Shown here: positions 15,560 to 58,532 of the stretch, in pieces
How positions within the stretch are numbered: position 1 is the stretch's first letter
Layout: every line of letters begins with the position of its first letter
From: an uncultured Ectothiorhodospiraceae bacterium
GTDB taxonomy: Bacteria > Pseudomonadota > Gammaproteobacteria > S012-40
Length of the DNA stretch: 61,048 nt
Direction of reading: 5' to 3'
Assembly (NCBI GenBank): GCA_964636675.1
Contig: CAZWUO010000003.1
Location: 1 to 61,048, forward strand
The notes under the pieces: model-generated
Databases searched by the model: none
Told to the model about the DNA's origin: nothing
What the model saw: the letters and a program-made list of their open reading frames with translations, nothing else
Translations under genes and position numbers: made by a program

Positions 15560-16540
15560 TTATCTCAAGCTCGTCATGATCCAGTCAACCAAAGCACGAA
15601 CCTGAGAATCAGGTGCAGGCTCTGGAACCTCTGGTGGATATATTGAGCCACCTTTTAAGTACGTCATATATTCAGCGCGCCATTTAGAATAATCAATTGA
15701 TGCACCGCTTGCATCTCGAGCATCAGAAGGACCTTTACCTATTGGCGCCCAAAGATAATCAAATCGAGGCATAATTGAATTCGGCTGAACTAACCGAGGA
15801 TTGAAAAAATGCATATACATCCATTCTCGCGATGAATTGCGTGAAGCTACGTGCAAAATATCCGGTGCTTTACGATCCGAACCAAATGCTGTAGGCATTT
15901 CACCATTAAAATCACCTAGATATGGCGGCGTACCAAAATACTGCCAATCTTGGGTTTCTTCTGGTAACAATGTATGACACCACCAGCAACCCTCTGTGAT
16001 ATATATAGTCTTGCCTGCCCCAACAAATCGCTTAGCATCATCACCGACAGAACTTAGGACTTTATCAACCGTCCAACCACGTACCGCCGTTGAGTTTTCG
16101 ACATAATCCAGCTCTTCGCCGTTGAATTCACCTTTAACAATAGTGAATACTATGCCGTCTCCCGGTTTAGCATCGTTAATTTTGCCAACATTGACGCTTA
16201 ACTCTTCCACCCCCAAACCAAGCTGATCAGTATGGTTTACGCCAGGTGAAAATGGAGTGCCTGGCTTATATACATAAGCTCGTATAGGTGGATCAATCGC
16301 TGCACCTGTCGCAGGATCTTTATCCAAAATTACCGTCACAGGCTTGCCATCACCACGAACTAAAGGGTCTTCGTAACTAAACCCTATAAGGCGACCAGCA
16401 GAAAGCTGTTTGTCCAAACCAACCCAAGTAGAAACACCAGACCGGAAGTCAAAACTTGGGAAGAACAGTGTAATACTCATTGAAAAGCCCATCATCAAAC
16501 CGATGCCGGCTGTACCAAATTTATGTTGTCTAAAACCCAC
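15560..16540 (-). CDS. ccoO: cbb3-type cytochrome c oxidase subunit II, enlarged
   Basis: GKTIYITEGCWWCHT, FGSDRKAPDI, HFFNPRLVQPNSIMP; GTG start with GGAGGAG RBS. Confidence 0.9.
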   Translation of the reverse strand: MGFRQHKFGTAGIGLMMGFSMSITLFFPSFDFRSGVSTWVGLDKQLSAGRLIGFSYEDPLVRGDGKPVTVILDKDPATGAAIDPPIRAYVYKPGTPFSPGVNHTDQLGLGVEELSVNVGKINDAKPGDGIVFTIVKGEFNGEELDYVENSTAVRGWTVDKVLSSVGDDAKRFVGAGKTIYITEGCWWCHTLLPEETQDWQYFGTPPYLGDFNGEMPTAFGSDRKAPDILHVASRNSSREWMYMHFFNPRLVQPNSIMPRFDYLWAPIGKGPSDARDASGASIDYSKWRAEYMTYLKGGSIYPPEVPEPAPDSQVRALVDWIMTSLR

Positions 16541-26724: not shown

Positions 26725-28677
26725 TCACATTTTTTTATGATGAGATATTAACAGAACCTCTTCAGACATAGCACCGCTTTCAATTTTCACTAATTTTTTT
26801 TGGCTGGCATCTTCAACGTTATCAAATACAAACCCCGGCCTCACGTCATGCTTAATAGTGACAGGAAAATGCGCGAAGCTACCGATGCTGAGCAGTTTTT
26901 GTTGCGAAATATTGCCTAACCACACCATTTTATTTTCGTTGGTTTCCAGTGTTACTGCTGGCCAGAATCTAATCGTATACTGCGCGTCATCATCTAATCC
27001 TCTTTTGGTAAATTGCAGTGTTTCAAACTTTCCGGCATAAATTTTTGGCAATATCGGCAACTGGTTAATTTCTTTAGTTGCGGAAAACCATTTAAGAAAG
27101 CTAGAAAATGTAAGCTCAATCGGCTCCTCCCACTTTGCTACTTTCAATGTTTGTCTAATTTGATCTGCCGTTGCTGCCCATTGAAACGTAATTGGCAGAA
27201 GGTGCAAATGTTCATCTTTATACACATCGCGCCATGCTCCTTCCCACCAATAATCTGTGTTTACAATACCTAAACCAGCACTTGCGGTTTTTCGATATTC
27301 ATCTTGTAGAAAACCAAAAATTATTCCTATACCAAGCACCACAGCGAGTCCTGAACAGCTGATAAGCAAATGTAATCTCGTAGGAGAACTATGCGCATGG
27401 CGGCGATACGATAAACCAGCAAACACAACCATCATTAACGCAAAAGATAAACCGAATAACCAAGTCGAAACAGAAACATCTCCGTAGTACAAGGCCGAAA
27501 AACTAATCATAAAGGCTAATACACTAGCGATAGAATAAAATACTCTACGCAAAGTTTTACCTAACTCACTCCCTAGCAAAACGGCGAGCACACCCAGCAA
27601 ACCACCACTAACCACTATATGCCAAAGCTTCACATCAAATACAAATGCTGCCAATGCTACTACCAATATGCTTGCAGCCATGGCAACAACAAAATACCAA
27701 AAAGCCTGCATTAACCTAAAGTAAATAAAACCTATTGTTACAGTAAAAAATACAAGGCCAAGAAAAGCAGGACTGCCTAGCTGATCAAATACGCTAAAAA
27801 CTTGATCTAACCAAGAGAAATGAATAGCACTAAAAAATTGCGTTACTATTGAGTTAATGGATACAAAAAAAGGCGACCGATAAAAGACGACTTGGGATAA
27901 TAAAACGCCGAATGAAACCACCAGCACGGCAAACCAAAAAAACAATGCCCCCTGAGGTTTTTTTTTAGAATCAACGAGCTTAACAACTAAAATTTTCGCC
28001 AATGGATGCGCTTCTCCCCAGTGTATAATACTCAAGACCCAAGCATCTAATTTCGGGCCTATTGACTTAGAGAGCTTCTTAACTGTCCAAACTATTGCGA
28101 CTAATAGTACAACGAGAACCACAAACAATATGCCCAACCGAGTAGCTATTTCTGAAGCTAAGCCCAGTGACGCACCGAACGCCACACCAGGCAATAGATA
28201 AGCCGGCGCCCAACCAGCAGCGGAAATAATGTTAAATAAGAAAAACTTTTTCGGCCGCATTTGCATCATGCCAGCAATCGTGGGAACTACGGCGCGCAAC
28301 GGGCCGACAAAACGTCCTAAAACAACACTCTTGCCGCCATGACGTGCAAAAAAAACTTTTCCGTTTTCTAGCAAATGCTTTTTTTTCTTAAACGGCCATA
28401 TATTAGGAACTAAGTCTTTAAAGTAATAACCGATCCAAAAACTAATGGCATCACCCACTACAGCACCCAGAAAAGCTAACAGCAGAGTCTCCCATAACCC
28501 TAGGAAACCAGTTCCTACGAGCGCACCAAAACTCAGCATAATGAAGGCACCCGGCACGAGCACACCAACCACGAGCAGGGACTCTGCCATAGCAACGATA
28601 AACACCATCACTCCGGCCCATACTGGGTTATCTTGTAACCAGTTAAAGAAAGGTTGTAAGTCGGTTAAGAAATCCAT
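26725..28677 (-). CDS. DedA/VTT family protein fused to degenerate PAP2-like and LssY-like domains
   Basis: AESLLVVGVLVPG, GDAISFWIG, GRFVGPLRA; multi-TM middle; soluble C-terminus. Confidence 0.85.
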   Translation of the reverse strand: MDFLTDLQPFFNWLQDNPVWAGVMVFIVAMAESLLVVGVLVPGAFIMLSFGALVGTGFLGLWETLLLAFLGAVVGDAISFWIGYYFKDLVPNIWPFKKKKHLLENGKVFFARHGGKSVVLGRFVGPLRAVVPTIAGMMQMRPKKFFLFNIISAAGWAPAYLLPGVAFGASLGLASEIATRLGILFVVLVVLLVAIVWTVKKLSKSIGPKLDAWVLSIIHWGEAHPLAKILVVKLVDSKKKPQGALFFWFAVLVVSFGVLLSQVVFYRSPFFVSINSIVTQFFSAIHFSWLDQVFSVFDQLGSPAFLGLVFFTVTIGFIYFRLMQAFWYFVVAMAASILVVALAAFVFDVKLWHIVVSGGLLGVLAVLLGSELGKTLRRVFYSIASVLAFMISFSALYYGDVSVSTWLFGLSFALMMVVFAGLSYRRHAHSSPTRLHLLISCSGLAVVLGIGIIFGFLQDEYRKTASAGLGIVNTDYWWEGAWRDVYKDEHLHLLPITFQWAATADQIRQTLKVAKWEEPIELTFSSFLKWFSATKEINQLPILPKIYAGKFETLQFTKRGLDDDAQYTIRFWPAVTLETNENKMVWLGNISQQKLLSIGSFAHFPVTIKHDVRPGFVFDNVEDASQKKLVKIESGAMSEEVLLISHHKKM

Positions 28678-28794
28678 TTCTCGGCGGAGACGGCTCCTTG
28701 ATCAGAAAGGCTGATGGTTCTTACATCTATTTGCAAAGAACAGCTGAAGAGTGTTCTCTGCTTAAAACAGCTCAAAGCTCTGCGCACAGAAAAG

Positions 28795-52647: not shown

Positions 52648-53268
52648 CTAGCTTTCTTTTTTAACCAAGAAATTAATAACCTTAATCGTATTCGCATTCC
52701 CACCAGTCATTCTATTCGATACCAAATATTTTCCATTAACAATAATCGCGGGCACACCTCTTAAGCCATATCGACTCGCCAACGTCTTTGCTCTTTTAAT
52801 TCGAGTTTCCACTGCAAATGAACGAAAAGTTTTGGTGAATTCTATTTTATCAACACCATGCTCAGCGAAGAAATCTCTCAGCGCTTCTTGAGTATCTAGT
52901 TTTCTTTTTTGCAAATGAAGCGCGTCGAATAATGGTTGATGAACTTTGTCAAATACACCCAATAACTGCGAAGTATAAAAGGCGCGTGCGTGTACTTCCC
53001 AGTCTGCTCTTAATACACCCGGTAATCTCACGAACTCAGCATTCTCAGGTTTTCTTTTTAACCATCGCTCTATGTAGGGTTCGAAACGAAAGCAATGTGG
53101 GCAGCCATACCAGAATACTTCTAGCACCTCTACTTTGCCTTTTGTGCTCGTCGGCTGAGGAGCTGATAGCCGCTCATAGTGCACACCTTCTTTATATTCC
53201 TCGGCGAACACTGGCATGGTAAAAGCCAGGGAAAAAACCACTAAGGTGACTAAACGAAAAACACGCAT
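52648..53268 (-). CDS. dsbA: Thiol:disulfide oxidoreductase DsbA
   Basis: Signal peptide, FWYGCPHC, GVPAIIVNGKY. Confidence 0.95.
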   Translation of the reverse strand: MRVFRLVTLVVFSLAFTMPVFAEEYKEGVHYERLSAPQPTSTKGKVEVLEVFWYGCPHCFRFEPYIERWLKRKPENAEFVRLPGVLRADWEVHARAFYTSQLLGVFDKVHQPLFDALHLQKRKLDTQEALRDFFAEHGVDKIEFTKTFRSFAVETRIKRAKTLASRYGLRGVPAIIVNGKYLVSNRMTGGNANTIKVINFLVKKES

Positions 53269-53473
53269 GCTAAAAAACCCCCTGTAAACGGTACAAACTA
53301 GGTGAATAATAAACTATTTGGTATTATACCTGGATCCTGACACTATCCGCAGGATCTTAATAATATTGATGTAGAACACATTTCTGGAATAATCCAGTGA
53401 CCAGCATCCGGTATAAATATATACGAAATAAACCACATTCCATAATAAATTCCGCAAAAATAGGCCTTAAAAC

Positions 53474-53962
53474 ATGACTTCAGATAAAATTAATTTAGTA
53501 GACTTACTTAAACAACAGCGCTTATGCGACTCACTCACCGTAAAAGAAGTTCAACTTTTCCTCGATTATACCGAGGTTCTTACCTATAAAAAAAATGAAA
53601 TTATCGCTGATATTGGAGAAATAGGTGACTCTTTATTTTTTCTTATTCAAGGTAAAGCAGGCCTATTTCACGATGAAGGAACCGGTGAAACGATAGTAGG
53701 CACAATTCACGAAGGTGAATTGATGGGAGAAATGTCATTTTTTGACATGGAACCACGTTCCGTGAGAATGAAAGCTTTGGATTCTAATACCAAGCTGCTA
53801 ACCCTCTCCCGAAAAATGTATACACGCCTACGCGTTGAACACCCTTATATAGCGGTAAATTTATTAGAACACGCCATTGTAAGCCTAGACCACTTATTCA
53901 GAAGAGTGAGTTCAGATGTCGCTACTTTTTCTACTTATTTGTACGGAAAAGGCAAACGTTAA
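53474..53962 (+). CDS. Stand-alone cyclic-nucleotide-binding domain protein
   Basis: GEIGDSLFF, GELMGEMSFFD..PRS. Confidence 0.85.
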   Translation: MTSDKINLVDLLKQQRLCDSLTVKEVQLFLDYTEVLTYKKNEIIADIGEIGDSLFFLIQGKAGLFHDEGTGETIVGTIHEGELMGEMSFFDMEPRSVRMKALDSNTKLLTLSRKMYTRLRVEHPYIAVNLLEHAIVSLDHLFRRVSSDVATFSTYLYGKGKR

Positions 53963-53968
53963 TCACCA

Positions 53969-54589
53969 ATGCTGTCTCCCACACAAAAAGTATTACGTAC
54001 GGCACGTTTCACCATGGCTGCTGCGGAACCAAAACAATTGCTCAACGATCAAGGCTTGGAAATCGCCTTTGCAGGGCGCTCAAACGCTGGCAAATCCAGT
54101 GCGATTAACGCAATAACCGGCAGACCCTCACTGGCGAGAACGAGTAAAACACCGGGACGTACCCAGCAAATCATTTTTTTTGAATTAGATGAGGCGCGTC
54201 GTCTTGTTGATCTGCCTGGCTACGGTTTTGCCAAGGTACCCAACAGAATCAAAAAACATTGGCGCACGCTGATGGCGGGCTATTTTACAAATCGCGTAGC
54301 GTTACAAGGCTTAATCTTACTTATGGATATTCGTCATCCATTACGCGACGAAGATATTCAGATGATTGACTGGTGTGTAGACACACAAACACCGTTGCAC
54401 ATATTGTTAACCAAGTCTGACAAACTCAGTAAAGGCGCCGCCGCCAACCAGCTTCAGAAAGTAAAAAAAGAACTTGAGAACTTAGGCTTTGAAGGTGCAT
54501 CAATGCAATTGTTTTCCTCGCTAAAAAAAACAGGGCTTGTAGCAACCTTAGACATCATGACCGAATGGCTAAATATTCCTCATGAATAA
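53969..54589 (+). CDS. engB: Ribosome biogenesis GTPase YihA/EngB
   Basis: AGRSNAGKSS, SKTPGRTQ, DLPGYG, LTKSDKL. Confidence 0.96.
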   Translation: MLSPTQKVLRTARFTMAAAEPKQLLNDQGLEIAFAGRSNAGKSSAINAITGRPSLARTSKTPGRTQQIIFFELDEARRLVDLPGYGFAKVPNRIKKHWRTLMAGYFTNRVALQGLILLMDIRHPLRDEDIQMIDWCVDTQTPLHILLTKSDKLSKGAAANQLQKVKKELENLGFEGASMQLFSSLKKTGLVATLDIMTEWLNIPHE

Positions 54590-54612
54590 AAATTATCCCG
54601 GAATTTTTGATT

Positions 54613-54735
54613 AAAAAAAACCCCAGTGGGAGAAACACCAGGGCTTTCAAGATACCCGATTCTGGGTAAATCGGGCTATATGAGTTACCCCTCTCTGGGA
54701 GGAGGAGAGGGGAAAGTAGCAAAAACACCTACTTG
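54613..54735 (-). ncRNA. Putative ~120-nt sRNA downstream of polA with three C-rich-loop hairpins
   Basis: Hairpins at 54688-54712, 54655-54675 and 54621-54643, then U8; sigmaE-type promoter upstream; polA-engB position. Confidence 0.75.
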
Positions 54736-54740
54736 TAAAT

Positions 54741-54768
54741 ATTGACTCACTCCATTCACATTAGTTCC
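54741..54768 (-). promoter_or_regulatory. sigmaE (RpoE/AlgU)-type promoter
   Basis: GGAACT-N16-GTCAAT on the minus strand. Confidence 0.7.
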
Positions 54769-54828
54769 AGTGAATTCATTTTCTAAAATAAATCTTTCGT
54801 AAGTCCAAATATTTCATGAATTGTCGGA

Positions 54829-57609
54829 TTAGTGGGCCTCATCCCAGTTATCTCCAACGCCATGATCAACAATCAATGGCACCGATAGGGATGCCGCGTG
54901 CTGCATGCGATGACTAATTTCTATTACCGAACTATCAATACTACTTGCTTTAATTTCAAACACCAGTTCATCGTGAACCTGCATAATAAGCCTAAGCTCT
55001 GGCGATTCTTGCTGAATCCATTGATCGACTGAAATCATCGCTTGCTTAATAATATCAGCAGCACTACCTTGCATGGGTGCATTGATGGCCGTTCTTTCCG
55101 CATACTGCCTGCGTTGGTGATTTGAGGCATTGATATCCGGTAAATAAAGCCGACGCCCAAACAAGGTCTCTACATAGCCTTTTTCGCGTGCAATTTCTCG
55201 CGTGTTATCCATGTAAACTTTAACCCCCGGATACTCGTCAAAGTATTGATTAATATAAGCTTGTGCTTTTTTTCTCTCTATTCCAAGCTGCTTGCCTAAG
55301 CCAAACGCTGACATTCCGTAAATCAAGCCAAAGTTTACCGCTTTAGCATGCCGACGCTGCTCGGAGGACACCTGTTCTGGCAAGATATTCATGATTTGCG
55401 CAGCAGTGATGCGATGAATATCTTCTCCATTATTAAAAGCTTGCAGTAGGCGCTGGTCTTGGGAAAGATGCGCCATTATCCTGAGTTCAATTTGCGAATA
55501 ATCCGCAGCAAGTATTTTATATCCTGGAGCGGCGATAAAAGCCTGGCGAATACGTCGCCCTTCTGCGGTTCTTATCGGAATATTTTGCAAATTTGGATCG
55601 GAAGATGATAAACGCCCGGTTGCCGCAACCGCCTGATGATAAGAAGTATGCACTCTTCCTGTCACATCACTGATCTGTAAAGGCAGTTTGTCGACATACG
55701 TGGATAACAATTTACTCAAACCTCGATGCTCAAGAAGTATACGTGGCAATGGATAGTCCAAAGCGAGCTCTTGCAACACATCTTCTGCAGTAGACGGCTG
55801 GCCTTTTGGGGTTTTCTTAATAATAGGCAGACGCTGATCTTCAAATAATATTTTCTGGATTTGTTTGGGTGAGGCCAAATTAAAACACTCGCCCGCTAAA
55901 ACATGCGCTTCATCAACGAGGGCTTTCAGTTTAGTACTTAACTCTACGCTCTGCAGGGCAAGCAAATCTTTGTCAATGAGCACACCATTGAGTTCCATAC
56001 GCGATAAAACTGCAATTAGCGGCAATTCGAATTCAGAAAATATTTTGCTCAGACTTTCTTGCTGTTTTAGTTGAGTCCACATAACATGATGCAAACGCAA
56101 GGTAATATCTGCGTCTTCAGCAGCGTAAGGCCCCGCTTGCTCGATAGCGACTTGATTAAAGCTTAGCTGTTTAGCTCCTTTACCCGCCACATCTTCGAAA
56201 TGGATCGTTTTATGACCTAAATATTTTAATGCCAAAGTATCCATGTCATGTCTTGAGCCTACGCTATTCAACACATAAGACTCGAGCATAGTGTCAAATT
56301 CTATCCCGGCAAGGTGAATATCATAACGCGCCAATACGTTCATATCATATTTTAGATTCTGTCCCACTTTTTTGTAACGAGCATTTTCTAATACAGGTTT
56401 TAATGCCTGTAAAACAAAGCTTCGATCTAATTGCTCAGGTGCTTCTGCATAATCATGCCCGCAGGGAACATACGCTGCCTCACCTTCTGCGATTGAAAAT
56501 GAGACACCCACAATTTCCGCCACGATGTAATCCAGACTCGTTGTTTCTGTATCGAAAGCAAACAGTGCTGCGTTCTTTAAGCGCGTTAGCCAAGCCGTAA
56601 ACTCTTCTTTAGAAGTAACGATTTGGTAATTGCTTTTTTGATCAGGCGTCTTTTGTTGCTCGCTAACCGATTCAAGCTGATCGCTTTTGTCGCTATTTGG
56701 ATCTGTTGAATTAAGACCATTCTGCGGCGTAAGAATATTATTGTCGCTGAGCAATTCTCGCAGCCAACGCTTAAACTCGTAAAGTTGAAAATATGTTTTC
56801 AATGCCTCCGTATCAGGTCGAGAAAGCTTGAGCTGGTTAATATTGACGGATAACTCTACATCGCATTTAATTCGAGCCAAGGTTTGTGACAGTGGAATAC
56901 TCGTTAGAGTTGCGCGTAAATTTTCACCCACTTTGCCTTTAATTTCATCCGCTCGCGCCATAATCTCCGCAAGACTGCCGTATTCCCTTAACCACTTAAC
57001 CGCCGTTTTTGGCCCTACTTTGGGAACGCCTGGTATATTGTCTGAGCTATCGCCTACCAAGGCTAAATAATCAACGATATGCTCCGGACCTATCCCAAAT
57101 TTTTCATTGACCCCCGCTACGTCCATCAATGTATCTGTCATCGTGTTAATCAAAGTAACCCGTGAATTAACAAGCTGTGCAAGGTCTTTATCGCCGGTTG
57201 AAATGATTACGTCCCTATCGATCTCACATGCTTGTTTTGCCAACGTTCCAATCACATCATCTGCCTCAACTCCGACGACCGAAAGAATGGGAAAACCCAT
57301 CGCCATTAAGATTTTGTTGATTGGTTCAATTTGAACCGTAAGATCAACCGGCATTGGCGGCCTGTTCGCTTTATATTCTGCATACAAATCATCACGAAAA
57401 GTCTTTCCTTTCGCATCAAATACGACCAGCATCTCATCGGGAGCATAATCTTTAAGCAATTTTTTGAGCATGTTAACCACACCATAAATTGCGCCAGTGG
57501 GCTGCCCTTGAGCATTCGATAAATTCGGCATACCGTGATAGGCACGATACAAATATGACGAACCGTCAACCAGTATAATGGGCTTGTTAGTGAGTTTTAT
57601 TTGATCCAT
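54829..57609 (-). CDS. polA: DNA polymerase I
   Basis: DGSSYLYRAYH, EADDVIG, FDTET, DYSQIELR, AKAVNFGLIYG, QVHDEL. Confidence 0.98.
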   Translation of the reverse strand: MDQIKLTNKPIILVDGSSYLYRAYHGMPNLSNAQGQPTGAIYGVVNMLKKLLKDYAPDEMLVVFDAKGKTFRDDLYAEYKANRPPMPVDLTVQIEPINKILMAMGFPILSVVGVEADDVIGTLAKQACEIDRDVIISTGDKDLAQLVNSRVTLINTMTDTLMDVAGVNEKFGIGPEHIVDYLALVGDSSDNIPGVPKVGPKTAVKWLREYGSLAEIMARADEIKGKVGENLRATLTSIPLSQTLARIKCDVELSVNINQLKLSRPDTEALKTYFQLYEFKRWLRELLSDNNILTPQNGLNSTDPNSDKSDQLESVSEQQKTPDQKSNYQIVTSKEEFTAWLTRLKNAALFAFDTETTSLDYIVAEIVGVSFSIAEGEAAYVPCGHDYAEAPEQLDRSFVLQALKPVLENARYKKVGQNLKYDMNVLARYDIHLAGIEFDTMLESYVLNSVGSRHDMDTLALKYLGHKTIHFEDVAGKGAKQLSFNQVAIEQAGPYAAEDADITLRLHHVMWTQLKQQESLSKIFSEFELPLIAVLSRMELNGVLIDKDLLALQSVELSTKLKALVDEAHVLAGECFNLASPKQIQKILFEDQRLPIIKKTPKGQPSTAEDVLQELALDYPLPRILLEHRGLSKLLSTYVDKLPLQISDVTGRVHTSYHQAVAATGRLSSSDPNLQNIPIRTAEGRRIRQAFIAAPGYKILAADYSQIELRIMAHLSQDQRLLQAFNNGEDIHRITAAQIMNILPEQVSSEQRRHAKAVNFGLIYGMSAFGLGKQLGIERKKAQAYINQYFDEYPGVKVYMDNTREIAREKGYVETLFGRRLYLPDINASNHQRRQYAERTAINAPMQGSAADIIKQAMISVDQWIQQESPELRLIMQVHDELVFEIKASSIDSSVIEISHRMQHAASLSVPLIVDHGVGDNWDEAH

Positions 57610-57658
57610 GATTCTTCCGTACGTCAATAGGCTCTGAGCTAATCATGGTATCAGATTA

Positions 57659-58196: not shown

Positions 58197-58532
58197 CTAG
58201 CCTAAACCAAGAATAAAGTCTACTAACTCTCCAATATCCGCGTCATTGACACGTGGAGAATATGGAGGCATTGGCACACCTTTAGTAACTTCAGTCCAGT
58301 TACCTTTTCCGCCTTTCTTGACTTTAGCAATAAGAGTGTCTTTTGCAGCAGCATCGCCTTTATAACGCTTGCCAACATCCGCCCAACTTGGACCAACTAC
58401 TTTTTTGTCAATAGCGTGACAAGCAGTACAACCGCTCTTCTTCGCCAAAGGAGGCATATCAGCAGCTTGTGCTTGAGATACGCCAAAAACTAACATAGCA
58501 GCTGTAGATATACCTAACAACTTTGCCTTCAT
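58197..58532 (-). CDS. Cytochrome c551/c552 (c8 family)
   Basis: Start MKAKLL behind GGAGGAG; signal AQA; CTACHAIDKKVVGP, GGKGNW, PMPP. Confidence 0.93.
   Translation of the reverse strand: MKAKLLGISTAAMLVFGVSQAQAADMPPLAKKSGCTACHAIDKKVVGPSWADVGKRYKGDAAAKDTLIAKVKKGGKGNWTEVTKGVPMPPYSPRVNDADIGELVDFILGLG

Follow-up and report, generated by a model that had tools for sequence, protein, structure and literature searches.

The stretch of DNA analysed here (the window) comprises 61,048 nucleotides (nt) of contig CAZWUO010000003.1 from the assembly GCA_964636675.1 of an uncultured Ectothiorhodospiraceae bacterium (Gammaproteobacteria). The element of interest is a predicted small RNA (sRNA) of ~123 nt, encoded in the 239-nt spacer that separates polA from the convergent engB. 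An original prediction, made from the sequence alone, had placed in this spacer an sRNA of a new family, with a sigmaE-type promoter and three hairpins with C-rich loops. The features of the locus are as follows:

53969-54589, plus strand: engB (yihA), the convergent downstream neighbour (Pfam MMR_HSR1; 570 relatives confirmed).
54829-57627, minus strand: polA, which lies upstream of the sRNA and on its strand; its C-terminus recovers the polA of relatives.
54768-54763, minus strand: -35 element GGAACT (in the sigmaE frame, GAACTA from 54767).
54746-54741, minus strand: -10 element GTCAAT (TCAAT), 16 nt past the -35 element.
54736-54613, minus strand: predicted sRNA of ~123 nt, its 5' end inferred from the -10 element.
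54734-54714, minus strand: SL0, a small 5' hairpin (AAGUAG / CUACUU) predicted by RNAfold and absent from the list of the original prediction.
54712-54688, minus strand: SL1, with the anti-Shine-Dalgarno-like loop CUCCUCCCA at 54704-54696.
54676-54654, minus strand: SL2, with a conserved 5-bp stem (CCCGA/UCGGG).
54648-54616, minus strand: SL3, the terminator hairpin, with the loop UUUCUCC at 54635-54629, then U8 at 54620-54613.

Read directly in the sigmaE frame, the promoter is GAACTA-N16-TCAAT (54767-54741, minus strand), and the 128 nt that follow it (54740-54613) close with T8 at 54620-54613. There is no ATG in this 128-nt region by direct reading, and no open reading frames (ORFs) of at least 60 amino acids were found inside the polA-engB spacer. 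Folding of 54740-54610 by RNAfold predicts four hairpins with an energy of -47.2 kcal/mol (z = -4.46), a stability that 0/200 shuffled sequences attain. The loop of SL2 is ACCCA in the minimum-energy fold and UUUACCCAGAA (54670-54660) in the conserved 5-bp form. Loop 1 includes CCUCC, which is the anti-Shine-Dalgarno (anti-SD) core of 16S rRNA. The promoter GGAACT-N16-GTCAAT, the three C-rich loops, the U8 tract and the coordinates given for them in the original prediction are all correct on direct reading and by RNAfold.

A blastn search of 41 genomes with the 191-nt region matched only the genome of origin and that of a genus-mate (G001), and a covariance model was therefore needed to go further. 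The two copies have identical promoter hexamers and share 82% identity across the RNA, where a C-G pair gives way to U-A in SL2 and a U-G pair to C-G in SL3; from polA up to the promoter, the sequences cannot be aligned. MAFFT alignment of 16 copies, with RNAalifold, yielded SL2 and the base of SL3 only. As sequence alignment thus did not serve for every helix, a model was seeded with four copies and a hand-set structure (R1), and was extended by way of 21 copies to R2 and by way of 60 copies to R3. R1, built from four other sequences only, scores the window copy at 38.4 bits (E ~5e-10). Within the 4.14 Mb genome of origin, the locus scores 70.2 bits with R2 (54614-54736; runner-up 23.6) and 68.8 bits with R3 (54614-54739; runner-up 20.3), values that are partly circular because the window sequence is among the model-building sequences. 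Model hits of 20-24 bits in this genome are mostly driven by terminators, and candidate paralogues on contigs C60, C72 and C85 (14-24 bits) were rejected, being without SL1 or SL2. Two unpublished genomes (G054 and G155) are included in the class-sample, synteny, anti-hemB and promoter counts given below, and are excluded from A6 and R3; no conclusion hinges on them.

The hairpins covary. Across 21 copies, 90.9% of cells are paired and 26 of the 28 pairs show compensatory exchanges, against 30-52% of cells paired in slid controls; across 60 copies, 94.2% of cells are paired, against 27-52% in slid controls. Shuffles reached these values in 0/500 cases for either set. The covariation check proposed with the original prediction is thereby borne out, with compensatory exchanges in 27 of the 28 pairs across the 60 copies of the RNA. 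By helix, these comprise 7/7 pairs in helix 1 (SL0; 88.4% of cells paired), 7/7 in helix 2 (SL1; 95.7%), 5/5 in helix 3 (SL2; 98%) and 8/9 in helix 4 (SL3; 95.6%). In the same 60 copies the stems are variable and the loops are kept: a CUCCC-type motif is present in loop 1 of 52 copies, loop 2 contains CCCC (47/60) or CCCAG (17/60), and loop 3 is C-rich in 52. The window copy stands out by its unusually long CCUCCUCCC loop 1 and by the ACCCAG variant of loop 2; a CCCAG(A/G) loop 2 is the typical variant of its own taxonomic family.

Copies of the RNA gene are widespread in the class, which in GTDB takes in the former Betaproteobacteria. Among 80 engB loci fetched from named Gammaproteobacteria, polA is convergent within 1.5 kb in 18. 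The same architecture recurs in 15 of these 18, in the order GAACTT-N16-TCnnA, small hairpin, CCUCCC-loop hairpin, CCCCAAG-loop hairpin and C-rich-loop terminator, and the remaining three have spacers of 0-22 nt. Within the family to which the window belongs, one copy is present in 14/16 genomes (12/12 among those of high quality). In a sample of the class with one genome per family, a match at E <= 0.001 was obtained for 81/151 genomes (64/123 of high quality), mostly in single copy. The 29 best class loci include 20 with polA upstream and 24 with a convergent engB; where polA is absent, the RNA still adjoins engB together with a dihaem cytochrome c gene, or the cytochrome gene alone. Of the 12 genomes with hits in a 151-genome phylum sample, three belong to other classes; their matches (30-36 bits) were rejected as family members, being without polA or engB.

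The promoter motif is conserved along with the RNA. In its strict form it is found at the expected place in 45/62 copies, compared with 16/6221 background windows of the same loci, and in its loose form in 55/62 copies, compared with 62/6221. The spacer is 16 nt in 42/45 strict matches, and the first hexamer is GAACTT or GAACTA in 43/45. GAACTW-N16-TCWAW occurs three times in the window (0.37 expected) and 18 times on both strands of the whole 4.14 Mb genome; one of the 18 (GAACTT-N16-TCTAT) precedes by ~60 nt the start codon of the organism's own rpoE (315.7 bits; curated cut-off 236), which is encoded at 48341-48986 of contig C8 in the same assembly (G000), with the contig ending ~95 nt beyond the gene. 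An autoregulated promoter of this kind would be expected for sigmaE. At the level of sequence, the putative sRNA promoter is of the sigmaE/AlgU type and matches the organism's own rpoE promoter, in agreement with the original prediction.

A second exact motif (GAACTT-N16-TCAAT) is located in the 3' end of engB (54478-54504, plus strand), pointing at the sRNA gene; it is not kept in the genus-mate, even with one mismatch allowed, and is probably a chance occurrence. A strict sigmaE-type motif is also present on contig C1 of the assembly (~28672-28760, plus strand); behind it comes a hairpin with a CCUCCCAAA loop, ~250 nt from the next terminator-like hairpin. This element may be either a 5' leader or a second RNA driven by sigmaE.

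The gene, its fold, its C-rich loops and its promoter motif are kept across the class in one slot by engB, usually downstream of polA, and the window copy shows all four hallmarks of this class-wide family (model score, four hairpins with C-rich loops, promoter motif, and engB-convergent position). Because the promoter and hairpins are conserved, the latter with covariation, the locus contains an RNA gene and more than terminator hairpins, as originally predicted. The RNA might instead be mainly the 3' end of the polA mRNA, formed by read-through and processing, with the GAACT...TCAAT motif acting as a minor or silent start. A simple scan found no terminator-like site between the polA stop (54829) and the promoter motif, so that polA transcripts probably reach SL3, and 20 of the 29 class loci have the RNA downstream of polA, both on one strand. 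However, the motif is retained in 45 to 55 of 62 copies with its spacer fixed at 16 nt, and it is kept in the 9/29 loci where polA is not upstream. Moreover, the Pseudomonas sRNA ErsA, which occupies the same slot, is reported to be transcribed by sigma22 in the available text of its description (PMC8575079). We regard an origin mainly from polA mRNA as unlikely.

The RNA was originally taken to represent a new family, with a search of Rfam as one check. At gathering thresholds, Rfam gives no match in the window, nor in 20 engB loci of other Gammaproteobacteria; below threshold, the best match by E-value is to anti-hemB (RF02837), over its full length (model positions 1-81), at 36.1 bits (E 8.7e-7), which fails the gathering cut-off of 49.5 bits by 13 bits. 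The same model, run on 20 of the best 29 loci of the class, exceeds its cut-off in 4/20, each of them located between polA and engB, and a further 11 match below threshold. Since RF02837 passes its cut-off in polA-engB relatives, the window RNA is a divergent member of Rfam anti-hemB. It is thus a new member of an already known RNA family, and the claim of a new family does not hold.

Anti-hemB is the ncS04 RNA of Burkholderia cenocepacia J2315 and corresponds to the hemB/anti-hemB motif found with CMfinder (PMC1950547). The available text of a study of ncS04 describes a 105-nt RNA on Northern blots, and refers to earlier work for its binding of Hfq (PMC5688073). In published views, anti-hemB is a beta-proteobacterial RNA or an antisense regulator of hemB, and a 2026 preprint, in its accessible part, takes it as a hemB antisense regulator. 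In anti-hemB as in the window RNA, the first modelled hairpin carries a C-rich UCCC loop and the loop of the terminator is C-rich as well; relatives have a sigmaE-type motif upstream. The two differ in that the window RNA is flanked by polA and engB and not by hemB, and in that the RF02837 model omits the middle hairpin of the window RNA.

The original prediction had also described the window RNA as a new combination of an ErsA-like promoter with the architecture of sX13, an RNA of Xanthomonas. What it said of the locus in other bacteria is correct: Spot 42 is encoded between polA and yihA/engB in Escherichia coli, ErsA in the polA-engB spacer, and sX13, with its three C-rich loops, downstream of polA. 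In the available text on sX13 (PMC3771888), this RNA is said to be confined to the Xanthomonadaceae. Loci of sX13 were fetched with a primer-derived 19-mer (120 loci) and those of ErsA with a published probe (68 loci); ten of the former and nine of the latter were chosen by eye for genus diversity before scoring, and sX13 and ErsA sequences are absent from all three models (R1, R2 and R3). On true loci, the Rfam sX13 model scores 88-140 bits and the Rfam ErsA model 110-139 bits. R2 matches 9/10 sX13 loci at 27-43 bits (the tenth is cut by a contig end), 9/9 ErsA loci at 25-31.5 bits and 0/12 controls. R3 matches 9/9 sX13 loci at 33.5-48.9 bits and 9/9 ErsA loci at 28.2-32.6 bits, with nothing above 5.5 bits in 13 controls. 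In whole genomes searched with R3, the sX13 gene is the top hit in 2/2 (40.6 vs. 25.4 bits; 39.2 vs. 20.5 bits), as is the ErsA gene in 2/2 (32.6 vs. 24.0 bits; 28.2 vs. 24.3 bits).

The sX13 RNA aligns hairpin by hairpin with the family. Like the window RNA, it is encoded downstream of polA on the same strand and has three stable stems with apical C-rich loops; with the wider family it shares the loop 2 sequence CCCCAAG and the terminator GCCCCG...CGGGGCUUUUU. The loops are CUCCUCCCA, ACCCAG and UUUCUCC in the window RNA, as against 4C, 4C and 5C in sX13. The sX13 promoter is sigma70-like (TTCACG-N17-TATAGn), unlike the GAACTT-N16-TCnnA of the family, and in Xanthomonas the next gene encodes a hypothetical protein, whereas engB is adjacent in the window. 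In sX13 loci such as L085, L093 and L109, a perfect inverted repeat, GACAGGCG-CAA-CGCCTGTC, spans the primer-implied 5' end just upstream of the model match and aligns with the family's SL0. Either half of an old hairpin would make up what is called the "unstructured 5' region" of sX13, or some transcripts would start further upstream.

ErsA and the window RNA share, as far as sequence can tell, the polA-engB spacer, the strand and a sigma22/sigmaE-type promoter, which is GAACTT-N16-TCAGA in the fetched ErsA loci. A 5' hairpin is present in both RNAs, as is a terminator with a C-rich loop, and these align. Where the window RNA has SL1 with its CUCCUCCCA loop, ErsA instead has a U-rich domain II of 34 nt, unstructured and used for pairing. 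The available text on ErsA places it in the polA-engB spacer, and reports that it pairs with defined mRNAs in vitro, that envelope stress induces it through sigma22, and that Hfq is needed (PMC8575079). Judged by the model searches and alignments, the link of sX13 to the family is firm and that of ErsA probable. On the same grounds, the R2 and R3 searches point to sX13 and ErsA as related branches of one family, rather than unrelated elements recombined in the window, and the idea of a new combination is given up.

Spot 42 (spf) of E. coli has the same slot and orientation (polA, spf, convergent yihA/engB), but was rejected as a relative: R2 with filters off gives 16.8 bits, below the genomic background, Rfam gives no match, and R3 finds nothing at spf, with the best E. 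coli hits (20.7 bits) elsewhere. Spot 42 also encodes the small protein SpfP, and the title of a work cited in the available text on sX13 has its promoter repressed by cAMP-CRP (PMC3771888). A likeness to the cuckoo RNAs of alphaproteobacteria (ar14) consists in the cuckoo motif CCUCCUCCC in loop 1 of the window RNA and in adjacent hairpins with anti-SD-like loops. The motif is present in only one of the three loops of the window RNA, whereas cuckoo RNAs have it in each of 2-4 adjacent loops, and the ar14 model (RF02344) gives a sub-threshold score of 31.4 bits (cut-off 58.8). The authors of the cuckoo work found no homology link to sX13, and one of the three weak out-of-class R3 matches looked cuckoo-like. 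The likeness is most plausibly due to convergence on C-rich loops.

Several variants of the family were seen. The polA-engB spacer holds tandem copies at L018 and L069 (three each) and at L068 and L302 (two each), and there are multiple matches in the genomes G135 (four), G046 and G066 (three each). In tandem arrays, some of the middle copies have sigma70-like promoters; in the one at L018, TTGACT-N17-TATTAT replaces the sigmaE-type motif. At L045, L049 and L058, the SL1 loop is without CCUCCC, and the linker that joins SL1 to SL2, which is single-stranded, has UCCUCC instead; here, the C-rich seed seems to have shifted out of the loop into the linker, recalling the unstructured arm of ErsA. 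Shorter relatives from the phylum sample, in the same class (L345, L347, L350 and L351), have the SL1 loop UUUUCCUCCCUG and no CCCCAAG hairpin; two of them adjoin engB, none is near polA, and they are possibly a further, reduced branch of the family.

We consider it likely that the polA-engB spacer encodes an independently transcribed, non-coding and trans-acting RNA, the predicted ~123-nt sRNA, which would belong to one superfamily with the anti-hemB/ncS04, sX13 and Pseudomon-1/ErsA branches. In the proposed mechanism, envelope stress would free sigmaE, leading to transcription of the sRNA, and the single-stranded C-rich loops (CUCCUCCCA, ACCCAG and UUUCUCC) would pair with G-rich stretches at or near the ribosome-binding sites (RBSs) of mRNAs. 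By analogy with sX13, such pairing would reduce translation of the targets. In the available text on that RNA, sX13 uses its C-rich loops, independently of Hfq, to repress mRNAs that carry G-rich motifs close to the start codon, and mutations in loops and targets indicate that repression requires both the C-rich loops and the G-rich mRNA motifs (PMC3771888). The 3' hairpin with its U8 tract would terminate the sRNA, and probably polA read-through as well, and may bind Hfq. Two hfq genes are present in the assembly, and two genes in the window are candidate targets:

Contig C64, 6004-6189: hfq (105 bits).
Contig C1, 65813-65989: hfq (65 bits).
15566-16540 of the window, minus strand: FixO/CcoO-like gene (Pfam FixO, 58.6 bits), with GGGAGGAG at Shine-Dalgarno (SD) distance (16554-16547).
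58200-58532 of the window, minus strand: small cytochrome c gene (Pfam Cytochrom_C), with UGGGAGGAG at SD distance (58546-58538).

The last two correspond to the ccoO and c551 genes put forward as targets in the original prediction. That proposal is upheld as to the sites, since GGGAGGAG lies at SD distance in both. When 7708 crude ORFs were ranked by the energy of the duplex that loop 1 forms with their positions -20 to -3, the FixO-like gene came 7th and the cytochrome c gene 8th, although the ranking singles out no functional class. Several of the top-ranked ORFs are without a Pfam family and may not be genes.

A number of observations tell against such an sRNA and its place in this superfamily. 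A search with 53900-55400 of the window listed no RNA dataset containing this DNA. At E <= 10, the Rfam models for sX13 (RF02232) and ErsA (RF01719) have no match to the window (601 bases). ErsA lies only 4-9 bits above the genomic background, and acts through a U-rich single strand that is lacking in the window RNA. The available text on sX13 reports that compensatory mutations failed to restore regulation (PMC3771888), so that direct pairing is not fully proven even there. Covariation was assessed on alignments that had been fitted to the model, and such a fit favours the structure, although the margin is large nonetheless. Neither rseA nor rseB was found anywhere in the assembly, a result from which nothing follows, since rpoE is located at the end of a contig. 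Complementarity to an anti-SD-like loop is a property of any strong SD sequence, and the top targets of loop 1 are mixed (a sigma factor, an OmpA-family protein, a cold-shock protein, LuxR, L4 and others), with no theme. Given this mixed list, pairing with the cytochrome c and FixO-like mRNAs is treated as a lead and not as evidence.

It is also conceivable that the RNA chiefly binds protein or the translation machinery, as an Hfq sponge or as a decoy mimicking the anti-SD of 16S rRNA, rather than specific mRNAs, and the CCUCC of loop 1, as the anti-SD core, would suit a decoy. The unspecific list of predicted targets and the reported binding of Hfq by ncS04 point the same way, as do the unrestored sX13 mutants, for which the authors, in the available text, propose an unknown factor acting on G-rich motifs (PMC3771888). 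Against this, sX13 repression is reported there to need both C-rich loops and G-rich motifs and to be independent of Hfq, ErsA is reported to pair with defined mRNAs in vitro (PMC8575079), and loop 2 (CCCCAAG; CCCAGAG in the taxonomic family of the window) is conserved beyond a simple anti-SD core; a sponge or decoy is, in our estimation, improbable. That the hairpins are mere terminators of the convergent polA and engB genes, with a promoter-like motif arising by chance, would fit a spacer between convergent genes, the classical terminator form of SL3 with U8, and the terminator-driven nature of most other 20-24-bit hits in the genome, but is very hard to reconcile with four conserved hairpins (27/28 pairs compensatory), with conserved loop sequences and promoter, with an element that stays by engB where polA is absent, and with described relatives that are discrete RNAs.

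Apart from engB and polA, the neighbourhood of the sRNA gene includes a DUF2782 gene and, upstream of engB, the following:

53474-53959, plus strand: gene for a cNMP-binding protein.
52651-53268, minus strand: DsbA gene.

In relatives, genes for a dihaem cytochrome c and DsbA occupy the position that corresponds to 52651-53959 of the window; their presence at that place links the sRNA to genes for periplasmic redox proteins.

No publication naming ErsA together with sX13 was found, in a search that excluded subscription papers, among them the first ErsA paper, and the publications found on anti-hemB draw no link to sX13 or ErsA. The unification of these RNAs and the conserved sigmaE-type motif thus seem to be unpublished, within the reach of the search. 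The result answers the question posed at the close of the sX13 paper, as given in its available text, of whether the polA loci of other bacteria encode such RNAs (PMC3771888). It also indicates that present Rfam thresholds miss most members of the family, the window copy included. For anti-hemB, the result supplies a candidate regulator (sigmaE) and a candidate mode of action (C-rich loops), and speaks against a role as an antisense regulator of hemB.

For the window alone, the gain is one of annotation, namely one more member of the family. For the family, ErsA, which affects biofilm, the porin OprD and anaerobic growth in Pseudomonas, sX13, which affects virulence in Xanthomonas, and anti-hemB have each been studied alone and would be local forms of one RNA, and this RNA, with its conserved envelope-stress promoter, would be present in about half of the sampled families of the class. 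A further reading, to which we give slightly less than even credence, is that the window RNA is a near-ancestral survivor of one ancient sRNA of the sigmaE regulon that has stayed beside engB through the history of the class, and from which ErsA, sX13 and anti-hemB diverged in place. ErsA would have arisen by melting of SL1 into a U-rich arm, and sX13 by a promoter swap. For mRNAs with G-rich RBSs, among them those of exported c-type cytochromes such as the two candidates in the window, the ancestral function would have been that of an envelope-stress brake on translation.

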